A stretch of 62,333 nucleotides of DNA, filler included. It is 16 parts of 16 records of this genome, joined end to end, with 100 filler letters (N's around TTAATTAATTAA, not from the genome) between each part and the next. Parts side by side here need not be neighbours in the genome. Positions count along the whole stretch, not along the records: positions 12,777 to 17,570 come from SRR9670534_382; 15 more parts are not named here. One strand, given 5' to 3'. Made by a program: the position numbers and the translations under genes. Under the pieces are notes generated by a model. The model did not search any database. It had not been told where the DNA came from and saw only the letters and a program-made list of their open reading frames with translations. Of this stretch, positions 800 through 22,183 are shown one piece after another (position 1 is the first letter of the stretch; the number at the start of each line of letters is the position of its first letter).

Positions 800-2900
800 A
801 TCAGAATAACAGTGCTATGTCTGCTTTTTTCAAGTAGTCTGGCAAGTTGTTCCAGATGTCAACAACTGACACCAAGTAGGACTTTCAATATATATTAGAC
901 ATTACCTCTGCATTCAATCTGATGTTAAGCTTCAGTCTCTGTGATTGAAAGGTTGTAAAAACACTGTATTCACCACTAAAAGCATTATTGAGAAATTTGT
1001 ACATCAAAATTAAGTCATTTTGGATTAAATGCTCTTTAAGAGTTTTTACTTCGAAATATTGACAGTACTCTTCATATGAATAGCCAATGTTGATTCTACT
1101 TTTAGTAATAATTATTCAAAAAGTCCATTATTGCAGCTTCTCCATATCATCAAGCCTTGCATGGTAATGCAGGCACCATAATGAGGCACCATAATCCATC
1201 AACTATCTGATATATTGTATGTAACAGTGGTAGAGTAATGTGGGAGCTTTTGATCTCATACTGCTGAAAAGTTGTTTGGATCAAACAATTACCCTTCTTG
1301 TGGTGATTTTTTTGTGTTCCTGGAAGTTGAGAAAATAATCTACCCATATACCTAGGTCTTTGGTAAGATATGTAACTTTAATCGTAACTTCACCCAATTT
1401 CAGAACTGATTCTGGTGAAGCTGTGCCTATAGGCATAATCTATGTCTTGTCCATGTTAATGGTGAGTCTCCAAGCATATGTCCAATTGTAAATGACCACC
1501 ATTGCTTTTTTTAGTTGCTCTAATTTGCCACCCCAAGTCTTCATGCTGAGATCTATCCATAGTACTTTACTCAGCATTAACATAAGATCATTTATATAGG
1601 ATATAAACAGCACTGGACCAAGCACAGAGTTTTGGACTACACCAGAACTAACTGGTAGTAGTTCTGAGGCTCTGCCCCTAATAATTACCTTTTGATACCT
1701 GTTTTCAAGCCAGCTTTTAATAATCATCAATGTATTACCACAAATATGAAAACTAGACCACAACTTCTTTATAAGAAGTGTGTGGTCAATGCAGTCAAAA
1801 GCTTTAAAAAAATCTAAATATATCATATATCCAGGGGTACTCTTGTTAATCCAAAAATGGCTCTTTATAAGAGTAAATGAGATTGACTTCTGTAGATCTC
1901 TTGTCCATGTAGCAAAATTGTTGCTGGTGAATTAGATTATGCTTTTTGTACCAACCATAGATCTGTTTATTCAAGATTTGTTCAAACACTTTACTTCCCA
2001 CGCATGTTAGTGCTATTGGCCTGTAGTTTTTTACAGTACAGGCACTCCCTGTTTTGAATACAGGTGTAATAAGTGCTGTATGCCAGTCTTCAGGTATAAT
2101 CTTGTATTGTAAAATTAATTGATACAGAAAAAACAATGGTGTTTTCATTGCATCCATTGCCTTGTGAAAGAAGATCTCTGGAATTCCTTTCATGGTTGGG
2201 TATAGTTTGTTATCCAAATTCATCAACTCAATTGCCACATCTGCTTCTGATATAATAAATTTATCAAACCAGTCATCTTCATCAACCAGATCTATGGGGT
2301 CTACCACCAAGTTCTGTGCTGGTTTCAAAGAAACCGAAGGAAAGTATTCATTAATTTTCTGGGTAATTACATCCAGTTCTGTTATGAAGATATTGCCTTC
2401 CTTTATTACTTCAGCCTTTTCCATGGGAGCTAAAACTTTTTTCAAATGCAAAAACATTTTGTGAAAACTACTATTATTAGACCATTTCCAAATCTGTAAC
2501 ATAATTTGACACCATCATTTGGTAGAATTCTTGGTATCTGTCATAGAGCTCTTTAGAAGTTTTATCTTCAAATTTCTTCCAAACATTGTAGTGCTTCTTC
2601 CTTTCTTTTTCAAGCTTCCTTAACCACTTAGAGAACTTTGCAGAATTTTCCAATTTCTTTAATGGGACAAAATTCTCAATAATGCTATCAATGCAATTTT
2701 TAAAAATTTGAAAAAACACTTTGACTGTACACTCTGTGTAGAGTTCTTTCCAATCCTTCTCCACAATGATCCTGTTAATAAGATCAAAATCTGCACTTCT
2801 AAAATCTCAAAAATAGATAGGTTCAAAAGCTACTGAAGAAAAATTACAAAGTAAAAACAATTCTATACCAAGATGATCACATTAGGTCTAGTATCACAAC
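800..2900 (-). mobile_element. Degenerate non-LTR retrotransposon (CR1/L2/Jockey-type LINE ORF2, reverse transcriptase region)
   Basis: Three frameshifted ORFs (2477-2764, 1846-2502, 1440-1826) carry RT motifs NYRPIALTCVGSKVFEQI, YLDFFKAFD, SGVVQNSVLGPVLF and YINDL. The catalytic (Y/F)ADD is missing and there are several stops. Ends approximate. Confidence 0.9.
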
Positions 2901-3580: not shown

Positions 3581-3680
3581 NNNNNNNNNNNNNNNNNNNN
3601 NNNNNNNNNNNNNNNNNNNNNNNNTTAATTAATTAANNNNNNNNNNNNNNNNNNNNNNNNNNNNNNNNNNNNNNNNNNNN
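3581..3680. other. Artificial contig-joining spacer N44-TTAATTAATTAA-N44 (first of 15)
   Basis: The same 100-nt spacer with stops in all frames starts at 3581, 5803, 9924, 12677, 17571, 22421, 25755, 32386, 34666, 40545, 43741, 48885, 54264, 57429 and 60118. RFT1, PDE1, the CAM and SLC22 are cut at spacers and do not continue on the other side. Confidence 0.97.
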
Positions 3681-5738: not shown

Positions 5739-6159
5739 GTATATTCAAACATTTTTCGAATGTGTCATTTTAATTACCTATTATGTATTATTATTAATAA
5801 TANNNNNNNNNNNNNNNNNNNNNNNNNNNNNNNNNNNNNNNNNNNNTTAATTAATTAANNNNNNNNNNNNNNNNNNNNNNNNNNNNNNNNNNNNNNNNNN
5901 NNTACGTAATGGCTACATCACCTATCGGTCTATACAGACGAGTAGCTATTAAAACAGGTAGTCTATATCCTAGGTCATAGGTATGTGTTGAACACTCGCA
6001 ATTGACATAGCCACTATTCACTGATAATAATTTATCAGTCTTTGTGATTAATTAGCAGGTAACTCTAGTGCTATTATTAATATTGTAATAATGTACACGA
6101 AGACATTGCGATCGGTTCTTTTTTGCTTTTCACAATTTTATAGAAAGGTTCAAAAAGTT

Positions 6160-9564: not shown

Positions 9565-10078
9565 GAATAAATAACTATGACCAGCAGTTACATTATTCCT
9601 AACAGGAATAAAGATTTGTGAATACTTATATTTGTCTTACATATAATGTTTATCTTATCAGCTAGTTCATGATATACTGCTTTTATTAATTATTAGTAAT
9701 TGAATTGACCCTTTACTACAATATGTTTACATCATAATAATATTATTGGAGACATTTTTCATGAACTGTCTGACTGATTGTCTTCAAACCTGGACAATGT
9801 CTATGGGAATTATCATAATAGAGTATTGTCAATACTTTGCCACCAAATGTGACATGTTGACCAGATTGCGCCAAGAATGAATGCAGCGTCAATTACTTGA
9901 AAAATAAGATTATATAATGATAANNNNNNNNNNNNNNNNNNNNNNNNNNNNNNNNNNNNNNNNNNNNTTAATTAATTAANNNNNNNNNNNNNNNNNNNNN
10001 NNNNNNNNNNNNNNNNNNNNNNNAATAATAATATTATTATTATTAATTATTAATAAAAACAAGACAAAAGAGACCTAC

Positions 10079-12132: not shown

Positions 12133-14600
12133 TAGTAAATGACGAGATGTCTTCCTAATGCCGTATAATATATATTTAATAGGCCAAGGGCTTCCTCAAA
12201 ATCAAATTGCTGAACATAACAGTATTCTGGTATATTTGCAATTTGAATCTATCTATCTATCTTATTGGAAAATACCACCCATCACCCACTCTTCATGCAT
12301 CTTCTTTGTGGCATTATAATAACAGTAATTGGAGTGAATGGCTGCTCTTATTACATCGTTGGAAGAGCAACAGCCAGGATATCGATCTGTCAAATACAGC
12401 ACCACAGTTACCGTTAGTAGTTATCAATAATAATCTATCATCTTAAAGAGATTACCTTTTTTATTGAATGAATTATACAAAGGAGGAAAAGTACCAGGTG
12501 AGAAGAAGCAAACCGACTACGTAAATTTTAGACATAATTACTATAATAAGGATTCCACGTAGGTCCCCCATAAGAACGCTGTTATGTATAATAAATATGA
12601 TAAACAAATTTCAATCAAGACCAAAATGTAATGGATTTTCAACCCTCCCAAATTAACTAATATTATTAAAAGGGGGNNNNNNNNNNNNNNNNNNNNNNNN
12701 NNNNNNNNNNNNNNNNNNNNTTAATTAATTAANNNNNNNNNNNNNNNNNNNNNNNNNNNNNNNNNNNNNNNNNNNNTTATTATTATTAATAATAATTAAT
12801 AATAACAACAACCGATACGGGCAGAACGAAATATTATTGTTTTGGCTTCTATGAAAATTTTCATTTTAAAGACTGCTTTTCTGGCAGAAAATCAATATAC
12901 TCTTTTTTTATGGTTACTTACTGCTGTGCTAACAGTGTTCAGTGAACACCCTTCTCATTGTTATGATATATTTCTACAACAAGCAGCATGTTGCAGCTGA
13001 ATCAGGAATAATGATTTATTATTTCATAATTCATAGGATTCTATTCATAGTATTCGCCTTCATATAATACCTTCATAGAAAACCAGCCTGTTCATGGTAT
13101 TGTCCAAATCCCATAATAGTATCGATCGCACTTAGCTCATAGTTGGAATTAGTACCAGTATAAAACCTTTCTGATGACATCTTCGTATAGTACTTAATGA
13201 ATGGAATTTCTTTCACTGCAAGTTCCAATTTATAGCAATTGCAAGTTCCCATTTATGGCATTTATATAAAGTTTAAACTATTTGATAATTTTCATAAAAC
13301 ATGACCTATATTACAATGTAAAAAATTACTGCAAGCATTAATAATAATAACATCAATAATACAAGAAACAATAATCGCAATCGCATTAATTCAGCAACGT
13401 CTGTTAGATTGTACCTCAGAGCCTTATTATACTTATATGGGCTACTGTGCTGAATGCCATAAGTTGTTCTTTAATTACACGTTATTACTCCATTATTTAT
13501 TCAGACCTTAGACATTATTATAATAATAGTAATAATAAGTCTACAGGTAGTATACTACAAAAATTAGCAATGATAATTAATTATTGAAGAGAGCGACATC
13601 GTTATTATTATTAAATATGTATTTACCTGACTTATTGAAAATTACATAAAACACTTATGACAAATATACCAAATACACTGACAGACAACAAATAGGTGTC
13701 GCTTATACAAACAGATTTTCAAGCAACAATTAGATGTCGCTTGTACAGCCAGATTTCGCAAAGCTCGAGTAAATAACATATGTTATTGAATGGATTCCAT
13801 TCAATGGAATACTATGTTACATGAAAGAAAAATAATTAACATTACTTGTTAATTATAATAATATCAGGCGTTATTTAATAACTATAATGATATCATGTGT
13901 AATAAATTAAAGCATACGTCACAACAACTTGCGTGATTATTACTAATTCGTAATAAGCTTTTATACATTTTTGCATAAAAGCAAAACTGACAAGACAAGA
14001 AATAAAGAATTTCTGCAAATTACTTATTAAAGGCTGTATGTCATCGTCATTTAAATTAATATTAAAAAATGTACACATGTGACTTTGTACAAATTGTTCT
14101 AATGAAATGGTATACATATATGAAAACAACATCAGTTGTTTGGTATTACCAAATTGCTAACCGATCTCCAAATGATCCTTTACCAGTTTCAAATTCTGAA
14201 TACTGAACCAGTAATTGGGAGACTCTGAGACGGAGCTACCCTAAGGTTACAAATAATTTACAATTAATTACATTGATGAATTCTTGCAATAGGTAGGCCT
14301 ATAAAACAATTCCTTATATTGCTAATGTAAGAATATTTATAACAATATTTGGTTAGGTCTACTACTACTAACAATAAGTATATGTAAGTCTGCATTGATA
14401 TAATGAAGTAAGAAACATTTTGTCAATAATAGTTTGCCTTTGTTTAAAATTCATCTTTGCTAATAATAGTCTATATATTTAGCTATATATTTTGCTAATA
14501 GTCAATAATAATTTTGCTATTGATAATACAAATAGCATATCATATACTACGACTTATTATTACATTAATAATATAGTAATATAATTTATTTATTATCAAA

Positions 14601-14833
14601 GCTTTACATGCCACTCTATATTACTTTAGCCCTGTTGACTAAATACGCATGCCATTCAAATTGAATGATTCAATATTACTGAAGCCATGTTGGCCAAATA
14701 CGCATGCCACGCATTAATACTAAAGTCATGTAGGCCAAATACGCATGCCACTAAATATTGCTAAAGCCATGTTGGCCAAATACGCGTGCCACGCAGTAAT
14801 ACTAAATCCATGTTGGCCAAATACGCATGCCAA
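14601..14833. repeat. Minisatellite, ~41-bp unit, 4 clear copies plus 1-2 degenerate ones
   Basis: Repeated TACTAAAGCCATGTTGGCCAAATACGCATGCCAC-like unit. Confidence 0.85.
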
Positions 14834-15154
14834 TTGTTTAATAAGTAAAGTACATACATCGTAAGAATGGTATATTACTTAAGTCAAAATACAACTAAAA
14901 TAATAACTAAATCTATTCCTATGACTAAATGCATTATAAAATAAACTCTTAAAATATATAATTTTAGTCTTATCTATAATTAATTATAATATTAATTTAT
15001 ATTAATATTATATTAATAAACACTAATGATATTAATATTAATCAAAGTTTGATTGTATATTGTTTATTGCTAAAAACTAGATAGAGAAACAATTATGCAA
15101 AATATTTGACTAATTGTAAAATATTATGTTCAGAGAAATAAACTATTATTATAA

Positions 15155-16171
15155 TTACATTATTTGGTAAACATACAGATGAAGCATGGCATAGCAACAC
15201 TCCTTTGCATATCTGTTTGGAATATCAAACGATCTCAGGTAGTCAATAAATTCATCATTGTTTAGGTTGCAAAGCAAATATGCACCCACTAAAACGTATG
15301 CTTTTTGAATGCTAAAATAATAGGAATAAACTAAATATAAATATTATTAATAACAACAATGCAGTAGACAAATGTGATTACCCATTTTCACGCAACCTGT
15401 CATAATTCTTAGGCCCAATGGCTGGGATTTTATTTGCTGATTTATTGCACAAACCTTCGCTAACAAATTTCCGATATTTCTTGGTACATACCAAAGTTTC
15501 TGAATACTCATCTGTTGGTTTGTCAATATCTAAAAAACTATTTTAATTAATTTCAAAATATGAAAACAAAAAATGTGAAGTTATCAATAATATCTTATAA
15601 AAATCGATAAATTCATTTTAAGCTACAAATAAACATCCTTTATTATAATAATTATTAAATTAATTATTAATAATTATTAATAAATAATTAATGAATTATT
15701 AAACATCTATTATTATCGAATATAATATTAATAAAAATAATAATAATAATAAGCTTACAGGTAAAGTTATTGCACCATTCTTGAATTGCCTTTGTGCAAT
15801 CCATAGCATTTCTGTTCGAGATGTTTAGGCACATCAAATACTCAAGGAATTTTTTGTCATTCTTGTAGTAAAACAAATAGTGGCCTACCAAAAGGTAGGC
15901 TTTTTCAATGCTAAAAAGAAAAATGCATTATTAAATTTAGTTATTAACAATAAAAAATTGCCTCCAAGCTGGATAATAGGTCCTACTTACCTATGTTGAC
16001 ATAACAGGTCATAATTCCTTCGATCTATACCAGGCACTTCATTTGACGATTTGTAGTCAATTCGTTCACTAACAAACTTTAGATATTTCTTTGTCTCTGA
16101 CACTGGGATGATTTTGAAGATACCTTGCCCTTTGTTCTATTGGAATTTCTACTTCGGTACGAATAAGCCAT
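15155..16171 (-). CDS. Protein with two tandem barrier-to-autointegration-factor (BAF)-like domains
   Basis: Exons ~16136-15991, 15910-15759, 15529-15382 and 15311-15155, all internal junctions GT-AG and in frame. Repeat 1: TKKYLKFVSE..VPGI..IEKAYLLVGHYL..DCTKAIQEWCNNF. Repeat 2: TKKYRKFVSE..IPAIG..IQKAYVLVGAYL..ECCYAM. Compare BAF QKHRDFVAE..LAGIG..FDKAYVVLGQFL..DCFGCLREWCDAF. How the ATG at 16171 joins this frame is uncertain. Confidence 0.8.
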
Positions 16172-17047
16172 GTTCTCAGAATAGGCTATTAATATATGAT
16201 AGTACAATTATACTGATGCGCTGCATAAACTTTTTTGTAGTTTATTACATACAAATCATTATTATTTAAAAATGTTACTATAGTATTTATAAATACATAC
16301 CTAGATAGTGACTCGGATCCAGAAAACTGTCTAGATTTCAAAATTTCCAGATGCAAATTAGATCATGTTCATTCTTATCATTTATTATACACCTGTAACA
16401 TTGTATTATCTTAAGAAATATTTTGAACAAAAGAGCATACTGTGTTATGCATACAGTGTTTGATAACGCTAACCACAAAAATATCAATTATACACTTTTC
16501 TGATAAAAATTATTGTAACTTTCTCCCATCCTAACTCACTTGAACCAAGGACTCTTTTACACGGTATATAATGTAGCCCTATAAGATACCTTGACTTAAA
16601 ATAGTTTGGGTATGAAAAGTATTGGCCTTGAGTTAATGATTTACACGCAATAGGCCTAATATCAATGTAATTCATATAGGTATGCATGTATTATTACTTT
16701 ATTAAAACCGTAACTTTTCATGACAATAAAAGATGTCGATATTCAATTCAGAGAAATTCTCCACATCACGCATAATAATCGTCAGCTAATGCAAAATGAA
16801 GGCTCTGATTCGAAAACAATTGTTTATTGTTATTCTTAACCATTTCGCCTGAATAATGATGCTTCAATGCAGCTCTAAGTCTTCTCAAATTACACTGGAT
16901 TATTATTAATTATTAAACTTAATTGCGACGTGCAACGTCAATATATTATTATTGATTCTTTTCATTACCATTACTATTAATAATAATAATGTCACGATAT
17001 TACAGAAATAACTAATATACCTACTCCTTGTTGACAACTTCAAACTC

Positions 17048-17267
17048 ATGCTAGGAACGCGTCTTTTGTTAATTTTCATAATTGAAGCTTCTTTCATTAT
17101 TTTGGTATCAAGTTTGCATTGCTACCAGTGCGATGAAAATTATGATTTGTACAAGGGACAAAACTGTTTAGAAGAACCCAAAAAGAATACTTTAAGAAAA
17201 TGTATTTTAGCTGAAAAGAACATATGTTCCATGACATACTCAGAATTTTTGTTAAATGCAACAAAGG
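17048..17267 (+). CDS. Ly6/uPAR three-finger (quiver/sleepless-like) protein, first exon; remainder lost at contig end
   Basis: Signal peptide followed by LHCYQC..C..C..C spacing typical of LU domains. GT donor at 17268. Confidence 0.7.
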
Positions 17268-18676
17268 GTAATAAATTTCTTCATATTGTTATTATAATAC
17301 AATACCTATTATTATATAGGTATATTATATATATTATAATACAATATAATACAATAATTATTATAATACAATATATTATAATACAATATAGTATTATAAT
17401 ACAATAATTTTATTAATATTTAATTATGATAATAATAATTATTACTAATATATTTATTAATATTTAATTATAAATAATTATAATTATATCATTATCATAT
17501 TTATTATTAATATTTAATTATGATAATTATAATAACAATAATTATTATTATAATTGTAATAATAATTATANNNNNNNNNNNNNNNNNNNNNNNNNNNNNN
17601 NNNNNNNNNNNNNNTTAATTAATTAANNNNNNNNNNNNNNNNNNNNNNNNNNNNNNNNNNNNNNNNNNNNAACAAGCCAATTTGCATCAAGTTTGACGAA
17701 GAAGTTTTATTTTACCCATGATGCATTACCACCAAACGCATAATGCTTTGATAATTAGCTTAGAACGTTACATTTACTATACTTACCAATATTTAAATAT
17801 TTAAATTAAATAGTTAATTTAAATATTAAAATTATTGCCAATATTTCAAAATTCTTATTTTTATTTTCAATTTTAAATTTTAACTTTCAGACTGAAAATG
17901 TCAGCATTCACTATTCAGGCTATAGAACGTTATTAGAGATTTTTTCTATATTCAGTTTGATACCGTCTATTTAAAATACTTTTTTTTTAACTTTTTTACT
18001 ATAGTTACTATATACGCAACATATATATACAATGCATAGTAAAGCTTACTAATATTATTAATCTAATAAAGGACTAGAATAGGTTCGGTTAAGTGATAAA
18101 ATGGGTTTTCTAATTCGAAATGGTCTAAATCGATGAATTTCCCAGATAGAAAAAAACATTGTTTGAACAAAAGAGTAATTTAACCATTTGGAAGATGAAA
18201 ACTATGGTTGAGCAATTAACAAGAGTCTCTTGTCAAGAGAATTGTGGAATGAACCTAATTGGAACAACCTAATTATTATGTAATAATAAGAGGTGTAATA
18301 AGTAATAAAAAGATGGCGGTAATGCTATATTCAGAATTTCTCCATTTGTTTGATTAATAATAGAATTTTCTTCATGACATGCACTCTATAATTCGTAGAG
18401 CAACAACGCCAAATAAACATCATTTGAAGGATATTATTGATTCATATGCAACAATATAGGTATTATGAAAGAATTTACAATAAAAATAGGTTTTACATTA
18501 AATTAAAACTATGACAAAGTTCTTAAAATATTGCAGACGAATGCAAACTGCTAAACAGATTTCACTATGATTCTAGCGATTATTATCATATGCCTTAAGT
18601 ACAATAAAATGGAATATATTCGCAAATGTGGTAATAATTAAAAAATTTTAAAATCTGTAGATGAATAACAATGGCC

Positions 18677-21600
18677 TTAGTGTGTACGACTAATAACTTC
18701 AATTTGTTCTTCTTTACGTACAACTGCTTCATCCTGATCATTACTATCTTCTGCTGATTGTATACTTCCATAATCTTCATGTAGTTGAACTTGCGATGAA
18801 GTTGTCGTTTCAGGTTCTTCAAGTCCAACGATTTCAAATCCTTCCTCTTCACCAAATACGTTTGGTACATATTTCTAAAAAGACTCCGTTAGGTAATAAA
18901 ATTGATGCACACCATTCTCACCGATTTTAAATCTAGTTCAGGTTCTGCTACTTCTGGTGGTTTCTTCTTCTAAAGTATAGCTTTTGCAAAACATTATTTC
19001 GATATGTAATTAACAATACCGTGTTAATTCTGGTGGAAAACAAAGTACCAAACATGACTTGAACTGCTTCTGGAACTACAGATTCTTCTTCATCTTCAGA
19101 TTCCGTTGCCAATAACCCTCTTCTAAATGTAGATTTCCCGAAATACCATATGTCTCGAAAACACATGCGAACTGTGTATAAGATCAGCGATAAGATCAAT
19201 GTTACAAGGTTAAACGTACCAAGTGCAGCCAACATTCCTAAAATCAAGTAAAAATGTAATGATACTGACATCTTTTTTGAATTCCGTACCTTGTCGAACG
19301 ATCGTGAAAAACAGCAACGTTACTTGTAACAGAATGACTCCAAAAATAACATAATTCATGGATGTGTTATGAATATCACGAGATATTGTGGATGGTTTGT
19401 AAACAAAGTATATGTTGTACCGATCCAATAAGTGCTTCATGGCAAAATACAGCAAACCTGAAATGTTCGCAAAATAAGGTAGACGCAAAATAATAATTAT
19501 TACTTAAGTACGAATTTATACCAAATGGCGTGATTATAGGGCAGATCAGACTGTATGACATAACAATGGCAAAAATGCTCAGAACATAAGCATACTGGAC
19601 TGGATAATCATATTCCATAAGACCAGCTTTGGCTGCAAATATTCTTTCCACCTTCGATCTTGCCCGCAAGCGTCCCCATGCATAAAGCAAAAGATGGTGG
19701 ATTCTCAAGTAACCCATTCCAGTACCAATAAAGGTTGCTGTTATGATGTAATTGACGAAAAAAGCTCCCTTGTCAGGTAAAAATATACACCTAAAAACAA
19801 ATCTACTTCGTTAGATGAAATTTTCATCATGAAAATTACATGAACATAGGCGTATCACCGTTTTTTTTTGTTGGTACGCTAAATAGATAGCGCCAATAAC
19901 AAAAGTAGATGGCGCCAATAATTAAAGCAAATAATACCAACAAATAAGATAAATAATACTACCTAACAATCATAATAAATAATAGTAATTCATTGAAATA
20001 AACACTTACGTCCACTGAAAACCCAAAATTACTTGCTGAATGGTGACATCTTCCTTATTTTTCCCAGCAAAATACATGATCAAAGCTTGTGCTGAAGTTA
20101 AACCCAAAGCAGGCAAAATTAACAGCATCAATAACAGAAGAATGTAACATCTTCTCATTAAGCTTAAATTTTGTCGATCACTTGTCCAATGTCCACAAAA
20201 CGTACTGAGATACCACATTGCAAATGGAACGAGAAAAGTAAATATCAAAAGAATCAAGGATGGAACAACGTTGGAAACGAAGGCACTACCAATGTGCGAC
20301 AGAACCGATTGGTAACTAACATCATCCAAGATGTTGAGCAGTGCAGCTGGTGTTGTTCCGAAAATTATCAGCAAAATTGCGGCTAATGTTATAAGAATGT
20401 ATCTAACCCACCAAATGGATGGTTTTAACGAAATATTCTGCCATAAGATGTATTGTGGTTTTGGTGCAAATGATACTGTCCACTTGTGAACTTTTAGCTC
20501 TGAAGAAATTGATGAGGTAGCTGGTCGTTTTCTGCAACCTTTGACAAGACCAAAATCTTGCCATATGGATTTTGCCATTTTGGCATCAGTGAATGTTACG
20601 AAAGCTATTCCACGAGGATGGTGAAAAGATTTTGCGCGTTCTTCGGTGCATTTCTTTTCATAATCTTGCAAGAGCTTCTGGTAAAATCTTGCAGCTGGTT
20701 CTTCGGTACATTTGCAACAACATTTACAACACTTTTTACAACAAAGTCCACATGTACGAGGAACCACCATAACATCCTCACCAGTGTTTCTAGTTATATA
20801 TTCCGTCATCTCTAAAAGTAATGCCATTTGAAGACGTTTCTTGTTTAACTTGATTAGCTTTCTAGTGTCATAAACTAGTTGAAGGGATTCCATCTCAGTT
20901 TCAGGATAAGCTTCGTTAAAATGCTGGATTAAAAAACTTCTATGGCATTGGTCAGTTGGAATATTGCTAATCATTACGCTGTTTTCGGCGACTGTATCGT
21001 CCGTGTCTGCTAGTGAAACGTATTTCGTAAATAAAAACAGCATCACGTAAGCCATTACCAAATATCCGACGGCAATACTTGCATGTATCCAAAGAAATGG
21101 GCTTTCTGCATCTAAATTGCCTATTGTTGCCATTCCAAAAGTGGTTTCCATTTGAGCACCTTTGGTAACGTTAACAGGCAACACAAAGCATACTGAAATC
21201 ACTGTAATGAAGCACAAGTAAAATAGGAGGTATCGTTGGAACTTTAAATAACCCACAGAATCATTGCCGCATTTCTCCCTGAAATTTTCATCACTTAATC
21301 GAAAGAGTCGTGCAATCCAATAAAAGAACATCTTCAGTCTAAGTTTTGGGTTTGAACCAGAGCTACTAGCGGCGTAAACTGCAGCCACGTCTTCTTTTAA
21401 GCAAAAACTATGGAGCCATACATTGTAACCAGTTCCACCACGCTGACGAGCAATTTGTCCATATTTTTCATATAACTCAGCATATCCAAAGGCAACTTGT
21501 CGCAGAATGGAAAAGACCAATATCAAAAGAACCCATGCAATTACATTAAATGCAACATTGGAGGGTACTCCCTCAAAATCATCTGATGATAGTGTGAAAT

Positions 21601-21703
21601 TAAACAGACCTGTCGAGAAGGTGTCGGTATCATAAATAAAGCACTGCTGAAAATCCGTAGTATTCGTACTATTCGTTACATTAGACATGGAATGATCTAC
21701 CAT
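18677..21703 (-). CDS. TMEM63: TMEM63/OSCA/CSC1 mechanosensitive cation channel
   Basis: Exons 21703-20010, 19790-19522, 19457-19290, 19237-19020, 18969-18922 and 18874-18677, all GT-AG and in frame. Motifs: YLKFQRYL, VLPVN, GIAFVTF, FAPKPQYILWQN, CIFLPDKGAFFVNYII, PFGLLYFAMKHLLDRYNIYF. Confidence 0.95.
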
Positions 21704-22183
21704 TTCAATTTCTCTGCCTTATTATTAAAACATAATAATAATTCATATTACTGTATTGGGCTAGTACTATCAGCTGTGTTCTAAAAAGTTTTCAAGCTTC
21801 ATATTTGATTAGGTAGATACATGTACATATGGTATGTAATTATTGATAAAAAATACCTATGTACCTAGGTAAATACATGTACTGTACATATCTCTGTGGG
21901 TAATTAAATTAATTAAACATTAATACAAATATGTATACATCATGTATAATACATGTACCTACCGTTACGGTAGTACCGTATGTACCGTACATACTATTTA
22001 CTTACCGTACCTCCTAGGTAAGCTACCTAGGTACATAGTACAGTACATATATGTACCAAGGATATTACACACTTGATATGTACTATGTAGTACATTGTAT
22101 GTATTACTAATACAGTATTAGTAAATTGAAGTTACGGGACTTTGTAGTACATTGTATGTAGTACTATGTAATACAGTAATATA

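Follow-up and report, generated by a model that had tools for sequence, protein, structure and literature searches.

The window, a 62,333-nucleotide stretch of DNA (GC content 29.5%) in which parts of 16 records of one genome are joined end to end, contains on its minus strand two barrier-to-autointegration factor (BAF) domain repeats, located at 15155..16171 within record SRR9670534_382. An earlier note on this DNA had read the locus as two BAF-like repeats, and this was borne out by four consecutive stop-free pieces of the minus strand, which match the Pfam family SAM_BAF (PF02961; Pfam cut-off 25 bits) in the order N-half, C-half, N-half, C-half:

16136-15987, minus strand: open piece with the N-half of repeat 1 (PF02961 positions 3-30, 15.8 bits, E 0.02)
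15927-15760, minus strand: open piece with the C-half of repeat 1 (PF02961 positions 39-88, 38.4 bits, E 1.8e-9)
15542-15378, minus strand: open piece with the N-half of repeat 2 (PF02961 positions 4-38, 22.2 bits, E 2e-4)
15343-15155, minus strand: open piece with the C-half of repeat 2 (PF02961 positions 39-84, 25.2 bits, E 2.3e-5)

The HMMER check with the Pfam BAF profile that the note had suggested thus finds the family exon by exon. Two domains are also recovered from the spliced model by an independent profile built from eight BAF proteins, none of them from this stretch, with domain 1 scoring 77.9 bits at residues 2-87 (positions 2-87 of the 87 in the profile) and domain 2 scoring 74.0 bits at residues 103-179 (positions 3-79). 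In addition, a profile including the window pieces retrieves human BAF among Protein Data Bank (PDB) entries with an E-value of 1e-30, and membership of both repeats in the BAF family is supported by these sequence matches. Hidden Markov models built from the four pieces detected no further BAF-like piece among the 3361 six-frame open reading frames of the window, the next-best E-values (0.21 and 0.008) belonging to short stretches only; therefore, the window contains exactly two BAF repeats. The hairpins read VPGID in repeat 1 and IPAIG in repeat 2, as had been described, and the C-terminal EWC..F motif is indeed missing from repeat 2, the tail of which reads HLYVYQIM instead. No mini-exon that would restore W-C..F to repeat 2 was found on the minus strand between 12800 and 15260.

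The gene model, listed from the 5′ end, consists of the following features:

16153..16171, minus strand: candidate start, ATG 16171 plus 6 codons, in the BAF frame only if a 50-nt intron is removed or one base is missing from the assembly
16103..16152, minus strand: putative and doubtful 50-nt intron (donor GAA/GTAGAA, acceptor CCCAG/TG, GC 0.38)
15991..16102, minus strand: exon with the N-half of repeat 1 (SETKKYLKFVSE...VPGID...), equivalent to approximately residues 2-38 of human BAF
15911..15990, minus strand: intron within repeat 1 (80 nt, GTAAGT...TTTTTAG, GC 0.26, phase 2)
15759..15910, minus strand: exon with the C-half of repeat 1 (IEKAYLLVG...QEWCNNFT), ending one base into a codon
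15530..15758, minus strand: inter-repeat intron (229 nt, GTAAGC...TTTTTTAG, GC 0.12, phase 1)
15382..15529, minus strand: exon with the linker (Y-IDKPTDEYSETLVC) and the N-half of repeat 2 (TKKYRKFVSE...IPAIG...), without an in-frame ATG
15312..15381, minus strand: intron within repeat 2 (70 nt, GTAATC...ATTTTAG, GC 0.20, phase 2)
15155..15311, minus strand: exon with the C-half of repeat 2 (IQKAYVLVG...HLYVYQIM) and the TAA stop (15157-15155)
15063..15068, minus strand: AATAAA, a candidate polyadenylation signal 87 nt beyond the stop

A second AATAAA is present at 15644 within the 229-nt intron, so the signal at 15063..15068 alone does not discriminate. Spliced from the acceptor at 16102, the model comprises 188 codons without a stop. 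Given the base composition of the region, one codon in 12 should be a stop, and an open run of this length would occur by chance with p ~8e-8. The phase-2 intron that had been reported at the same position in both repeats was found at 15990-15911 and at 15381-15312, and in both cases it splits the codon equivalent to human Gly38, directly before IEKAY or IQKAY. The introns of the two repeats are unalignable, and all three domain introns keep GT..AG and polypyrimidine-rich acceptors. Over the 78 ungapped aligned codons, the repeats show 63/81/46% identity at codon positions 1/2/3, and Nei-Gojobori analysis of these codons gives proportions of nonsynonymous (pN) and synonymous (pS) differences of 0.28 and 0.72, the latter being saturated, with a ratio of nonsynonymous to synonymous substitution (dN/dS) of ~0.14. 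This duplication happened long ago, and purifying selection has since maintained the two copies as protein-coding sequence.

One chain or two genes, and the 5′ end

The predicted inter-repeat splice (15759/15529) would make the two repeats one chain. Its donor is in phase 1 and matches the phase of the acceptor, and the junction reads ...NNFT + T/AT (Tyr) + IDKPTDEYSETLVC-TKKY..., which gives the linker that had been claimed, 15 residues in length and with a GC content of 0.32. Exactly at the acceptor, GC rises from 0.12 to this value. Met is absent from the first exon of repeat 2, whose frame is already closed 4 codons before the acceptor; repeat 1 lacks a stop at the usual end of BAF and, if left unspliced, reads 23 codons into 12%-GC sequence. 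Given the absence of an in-frame ATG from repeat 2, the absence of a stop at the domain end of repeat 1 and the compatible splice phases, a single chain is the most economical model, and the fused reading with its predicted junction is regarded as the best one and as fairly probable. The previous description of one protein with two domains therefore holds as the simplest model of the frame, but it is a model rather than an observation.

Several points weigh against this reading. The gene and its junction are predictions from genomic sequence, and they lie on a short contig of a fragmented assembly with AT-rich low complexity between the repeats, where a mis-join is conceivable. Repeat 1 gains an in-frame ATG only by removal of a 50-nt intron, the donor of which is weak and the GC content exon-like, whereas the other introns of the gene are 70-229 nt long and frame-compatible candidates elsewhere in the window mostly measure ~75-210 nt. 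Repeat 2 is without EWC..F, its match to the independent profile ending at position 79 of 87, and each of the two hairpins has lost one of the two glycines of G-I-G, which may impair the DNA binding of either repeat. Finally, no close orthologue or annotated copy of the gene was found among 1.84 billion cluster representatives, and the best match is a single-domain protein, so the architecture is without comparative support.

An alternative is that the locus consists of two neighbouring BAF paralogues, i.e., a tandem duplicate in which the spacer between the genes is misread as an intron, each copy having its own unrecognised 5′ exon, a trans-spliced leader or a non-AUG start. Besides the genomic basis of the 15759/15529 junction, this explanation would account for the AATAAA at 15644 within the 229-nt spacer, for the donor-like TCT/GTATGT that repeat 2 retains at the site of the donor of repeat 1, and for the observation that both first exons start at an acceptor needing one upstream base, as if an ancestral 5′ intron had been kept. 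However, AATAAA is expected by chance in such AT-rich sequence, the 12%-GC spacer shows no exon-like island, the first exon of repeat 2 offers no in-frame Met, repeat 1 would have to finish in a 23-residue read-through of AT-rich sequence, and the phases of donor and acceptor agree. Two separate genes are thus considered unlikely.

The start at 16171 proposed in the earlier note was not confirmed as it stood, since this ATG does not share the frame of the BAF exon and runs into a TAA after 30 codons. Splicing of 16152-16103, which the note does not mention, would create an A/TG and a protein beginning MAYSYR-M-SETKKY; the GC content of this 50-nt intron is 0.38, in contrast to 0.12-0.26 in the other three introns of the gene, and exon-like GC (0.32-0.38) is unbroken from 15950 to ~16220. 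Upstream, the BAF frame contains a TAG at 16139-16137 and no ATG, and at the canonical initiator position the gene reads cccaG/TG TCA GAG (..SETKKY). Alternative combinations of start and donor are ATG 16259 with donor TTT/GTATGT and a 150-nt intron, and ATG 16687/16675 with donor CAA/GTGAGT and a 437-nt intron. Other options include a 1-nt assembly deletion between 16136 and 16084 or a lost start codon; with one more base in that interval, ATG 16171 would be in frame and the protein would begin with a basic extension of ~25 residues rich in Ser/Arg. As a conjecture from the sequence, donor 16301/16300 (CTAG/GTATGT) and acceptor 16221/16220 may delimit an 80-nt AT-rich 5′ untranslated intron.

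The difficulty at the 5′ end raises the possibility of a recently inactivated or non-expressed relic, in which the start codon and the final helix of repeat 2 disappeared after a long functional period. Such a relic would fit the out-of-frame ATG 16171, the GTG at the codon of the canonical BAF start, the degenerate C-terminus of repeat 2, and the absence of any annotated protein with these sequences from the collections searched. Nevertheless, all four coding pieces are open despite the expectation of a stop every 12 codons, dN/dS is ~0.14 with synonymous sites saturated, the three domain introns keep GT..AG and their polypyrimidine-rich acceptors, and a short intron or a 1-nt assembly error within 16136-16084 would explain the shift of frame just as well, making a relic a rather doubtful explanation. 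Least probable is a larger protein of which the repeats are part and to which upstream exons (e.g., from ATG 16687/16675 to the strong donor CAA/GTGAGT at 16540) would add a domain or a long N-terminal tail: this 45-49-codon frame has the best donor among all start candidates, exon-like GC (0.30-0.42) extends over 16490-16640, and a predicted protein of the snail Pomacea (P0007, see below) shows BAF repeats in much longer chains, but the upstream frame has no match to BAF profiles, the matches in the window being the four known pieces only, a 45-codon open frame arises by chance in ~2% of cases per frame with many candidate frames, the window holds only two BAF repeats, and the contig ends at 17570.

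The explanation preferred here is a real gene, selectively maintained in an AT-rich animal, that encodes one fused chain and a BAF-like pseudo-dimer; taken as a whole, it is favoured with moderate confidence.

Conserved and altered surfaces of the two repeats

The repeats were mapped to human BAF via the alignment of the repeats and its profile match to 1CI4 and 9J8M. Both repeats keep Lys6, Phe10, Val11, Glu13, Lys18, Ile26, Leu34, Lys41-Ala42-Tyr43, Gly47, Leu50, Phe59, Leu63 and Cys77 as well as a basic residue at position 72, and repeat 1 additionally keeps Glu83-Trp84-Cys85 and Phe88. The altered positions are as follows:

Human Thr3-Ser4: Glu-Thr in repeat 1, Cys-Thr in repeat 2
Human Ala12: Ser in repeat 1, Ser in repeat 2
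Human Pro14: Arg in repeat 1, Gly in repeat 2
Human G25-I26-G27: G-I-D in repeat 1 (G27->D), A-I-G in repeat 2 (G25->A)
Human Lys32: Asp in repeat 1, Asp in repeat 2
Human Lys33: Leu in repeat 1, Arg in repeat 2
Human Leu58: Lys in repeat 1, Glu in repeat 2
Human Ala87: Asn in repeat 1, Gln in repeat 2
Human Phe88: Phe in repeat 1, Ile in repeat 2

The G-I-G hairpin of the helix-hairpin-helix motif of BAF contacts the DNA backbone. The canonical G25-I26-G27 hairpin is intact in neither repeat, each of which retains one glycine beside Ile26. The activity of BAF depends on its being a dimer, and dimerisation creates the geometry for bridging two DNAs as well as the LEM and lamin docking sites. 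Gly47 of the helix KAY-V-LG-FL is present in both repeats (IEKAYLLVGHYL and IQKAYVLVGAYL); according to excerpts of two studies, this residue is the centre of the BAF dimer interface, and the G47E mutant is monomeric and does not bridge DNA (PMC6212729, PMC5638020).

The LEM contacts of BAF are given in the same excerpts as Phe39, Gln48, Val51, Leu52, Leu58, Glu61 and Trp62 (PMC6212729), and the substitution L58R is described as abolishing LEM binding of human BAF (PMC5638020). The residues at positions 39/48/51/52/58/61/62 are I,H,F,Y,K,E,Y in repeat 1 and I,A,L,C,E,D,Y in repeat 2. Position 58 is charged in both repeats, and the LEM-binding surface is not conserved. The asymmetric DNA and LEM surfaces that had been envisaged thus stand only in part: the halves do differ (G27->D, G25->A, loss of EWC..F), but the LEM surface is less asymmetric than lost, because position 58 is charged in both repeats.

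The lamin A/C Ig-fold is described, again in excerpts, as contacting BAF through helix alpha-1 (V11, A12), P14 and A87/F88 of both monomers (PMC6212729). At the lamin-surface positions Val11, Ala12, Pro14, Glu83, Ala87 and Phe88, repeat 1 has V,S,R,E,N,F, and repeat 2 has V,S,G followed by a diverged tail; this surface is likewise not conserved in the repeats. As for phosphorylation, Thr3/Ser4 are described in excerpts as phospho-sites beside Lys6 through which VRK1 regulates DNA binding by BAF (PMC8053085); Lys6 is present in both repeats, both have Thr in place of Ser4, position 3 is Glu in repeat 1 and Cys in repeat 2, and the segment would be chain-internal in repeat 2. Counted from sequence, domain 1 has a net charge of +2, the linker one of -3 and domain 2 one of +5, compared with -1 for human BAF.

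From these features, we infer one transcript and one chain, an intramolecular dimer, DNA binding, and the loss of LEM and lamin binding. In the proposed scheme, an ancestral two-exon BAF gene would have been duplicated in tandem, and the copies would be read as one ~190-residue polypeptide composed of BAF domain 1, an acidic linker of 15 residues and BAF domain 2. The two domains would pack via the conserved alpha-3 helix (KAY-LVG-YL, with Gly47 in both), as in the canonical BAF homodimer. The lamin site is built from the alpha-1 and C-terminal helices of both subunits, which brings the C-terminus of each subunit close to its partner's N-terminal helix; 15 residues of linker could bridge this distance from domain 1 to domain 2, running across the lamin face. 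Such a protein would be dimeric from the outset, as a single chain whose two DNA-binding faces differ, and could therefore bind or bridge DNA without concentration-dependent dimerisation. A complex prediction using the two C-halves as separate chains (score 0.00, the partner's own fold being uncertain) weighs neither for nor against this packing.

The loss of Leu58 in both repeats, the changed lamin-face residues and the course of the linker over the face at which the N- and C-termini of the two subunits come together suggest that the protein is probably uncoupled from the nuclear envelope, and its likely function is that of a BAF-like DNA-binding pseudo-dimer minus the LEM and lamin docking residues. 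The more specific proposal of a natural intramolecular BAF pseudo-dimer with two DNA faces and no LEM or lamin docking, acting as a concentration-independent bridging or chromatin-compacting factor, is tentative. If one DNA face were dead, the protein might instead act against the bridging activity of canonical BAF, as a monovalent cap.

Much of the knowledge of BAF comes from mutants that break single properties, such as G47E and L58R. If the proposal is true, the gene would represent an evolutionary separation-of-function experiment, in which the halves are 43% identical, the interface glycine is kept and neither retains the LEM leucine. The gene would reveal the BAF activities that persist without coupling to the nuclear envelope, and it would offer a ready-made asymmetric scaffold for testing single DNA faces.

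Contig context and host

The window is split into contigs of ~2-7 kb by 15 identical 100-nt spacers (44 N + TTAATTAATTAA + 44 N), which we take to be the usual six-frame-stop spacer used to string contigs together:

3581-3680, 5803-5902, 9924-10023, 12677-12776, 17571-17670 and ten more (15 in total): spacers

The stretch being a concatenation of contigs, gene order across the spacers may be arbitrary. The contig of the BAF gene extends over 12777-17570 (4.8 kb), and genes outside these limits are not necessarily its neighbours. On the same contig, an open frame at 17012-17407 (plus strand), divergent from the BAF gene, has a signal-peptide-like start and a Cys-rich stretch (..LHCYQCDENYDLYKGQNC..), by which its predicted product resembles a Ly6/three-finger protein; a Pfam scan of this frame gave no match at E<=0.001. 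At 14724-14878, overlapping opposite frames on both strands encode similar peptides (..HVGQIR.P.. / ..AWHAYLANMALAIF..), suggesting that a short palindromic or inverted-repeat element lies ~280 nt downstream of the BAF stop. Elsewhere in the window, three overlapping frames at 1440-2806 (minus strand) with the motifs ..YRPIALT.. and ..FDCIDH.. look like a frameshifted reverse transcriptase of a non-LTR (long terminal repeat) retroelement, and the piece 1849-2514 of this region had no match at E<=0.001 in a Pfam scan.

The larger open frames contain Pfam domains typical of animal genes, namely forkhead, SKI/SNO/DAC, I-set Ig, fn3, pentaxin, DIM1, ACBP, a TMEM63-type channel, the PDE1 N-terminus and galactosyltransferases. 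The exon of the TMEM63/CSC1-type channel (570 aa) lies at 20009-21718 (minus strand), and its best database matches, one of them from the mollusc Nucella lapillus, share 36-37% identity; the search with this exon returned only 4 proteins at E<=1e-30, with identity <=37%. By exact look-up, the single-exon DIM1 and forkhead proteins were both absent from a collection of 15 billion proteins. The host seems to be a member of a sparsely sampled animal lineage.

Relatives and comparison with known systems

Relatives of the gene were sought with a profile of the two C-halves among the 1.84 billion cluster representatives mentioned above. This search returned 13 proteins at E<=1e-3, but no protein reached E<=1e-10; Pfam clearly assigns 11 of them to BAF, matches a UBA protein marginally and gives no BAF match for the remaining one. 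The best match (45.5 bits) is a single-domain BAF from Pomphorhynchus laevis, and the search for tandem orthologues suggested in the earlier note found none among these representatives. A protein search with the C-half of repeat 1 among longer proteins only gave no match. In a metagenome scan, the C-half patterns produced 588 pattern matches but no relatives, and the N-half patterns produced 239 matches, two of which passed tblastn. These two (L001 and L002, 2953-3723, plus strand) encode a 257-aa protein on 43%-GC contigs; only ETKKYLKFV is common to them and the gene, they give no BAF signal with the full-domain profile, and they were rejected as chance matches.

More than one BAF stretch was found in three of the 13 proteins. 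One of them, P0009 from Ancylostoma caninum (RCN38680.1, 163 aa), has two truncated near-identical copies and is probably a model or assembly artefact. The other two are P0007 from Pomacea canaliculata and P0010 from a public contig. A tree was calculated from 16 domain rows, i.e., the two window repeats, eight single-domain proteins, both P0010 domains, three of the seven P0007 stretches and the first P0009 copy. The window repeats are 43% identical to each other, above their identity to any other row, and group together with a support of 93/97, with the long-branch P0006 inside the group. Together with the shared intron position and phase, this grouping agrees with the internal tandem duplication that had been deduced. 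The P0010 domains group together with 100/99 and the three P0007 stretches with 98/96; because the repeats of each array group with one another, the multi-BAF arrays of the window, P0010 and P0007 arose independently, each in its own lineage.

P0006 (151 aa, from a 3024-bp contig) has a single BAF-like domain after an Asp/Asn-rich tail and, like repeat 2, is without the C-terminal EWC..F. Its long branch lies beside the window repeats (87/54), a position that may reflect either distant relationship or an artefact of the branch length.

The domain family of both repeats is that of BAF/BANF1 (PF02961; PDB 1CI4, 2BZF, 6GHD, 9J8M). BAF/BANF1 consists of one 89-residue homodimerising domain, whereas the window gene has two domains, 43% identical, in one reading frame; the hairpin, Leu58, Ala12, Pro14 and Thr3-Ser4 are altered, and repeat 2 is without EWC..F. 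A second known system is BAF-L, which heterodimerises with BAF and binds DNA poorly. BAF-L/BANF2 is described in an excerpt as a divergent vertebrate BAF paralogue active in spermiogenesis (PMC8877947). The window gene resembles it as a diverged BAF paralogue, presumably alongside canonical BAF, but BAF-L/BANF2 has a single domain, the comparison being one of published description. A germline role for the window gene is pure conjecture.

The architecture itself has closer parallels among predicted proteins. Like the window gene, P0007 (LOC112569206, XP_025102719.1, 570 aa) carries several BAF-like domains in one predicted polypeptide, with 7 BAF stretches by the independent profile and 3 above Pfam thresholds. 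It differs in having seven repeats rather than two, is uncharacterised, goes back to an independent duplication (98/96) and matches the window C-half profile at 37 bits only. P0010 (237 aa, predicted from a 1503-bp public contig) has exactly two full BAF domains (87.6 and 77.5 bits) and a short linker, again like the window gene; it is not an orthologue, however. Ala stands where BAF has Gly47, and the chain starts with an acidic tail of 50 residues. The P0010 domains are near-identical (branches 0.03 and 0.08; 100/99), so its duplication is recent. In an AlphaFold2 model of P0010, both domains are folded (pLDDT ~80-95) and the linker is disordered, with a pTM of 0.59 and nothing firm on inter-domain packing. 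In the Atlas, the nearest large clusters to P0010 among the matches listed are all single-domain BAFs of 87-111 aa, with no large tandem-BAF cluster among them.

P0007 and P0010, each with several BAF domains per predicted chain, provide a precedent for the fused architecture. Full-text literature searches turned up no publication about a naturally occurring tandem or single-chain BAF. The earlier statement that no characterised tandem BAF is known thus remains valid as far as characterisation is concerned, but it has to be qualified by the existence of these predicted multi-BAF proteins. The gene is a variant of the known BAF family, with an architecture that is rare, not unique and uncharacterised anywhere. 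The independent arrays in a snail and in a second contig suggest that the multi-BAF architecture arose more than once, unnoticed.

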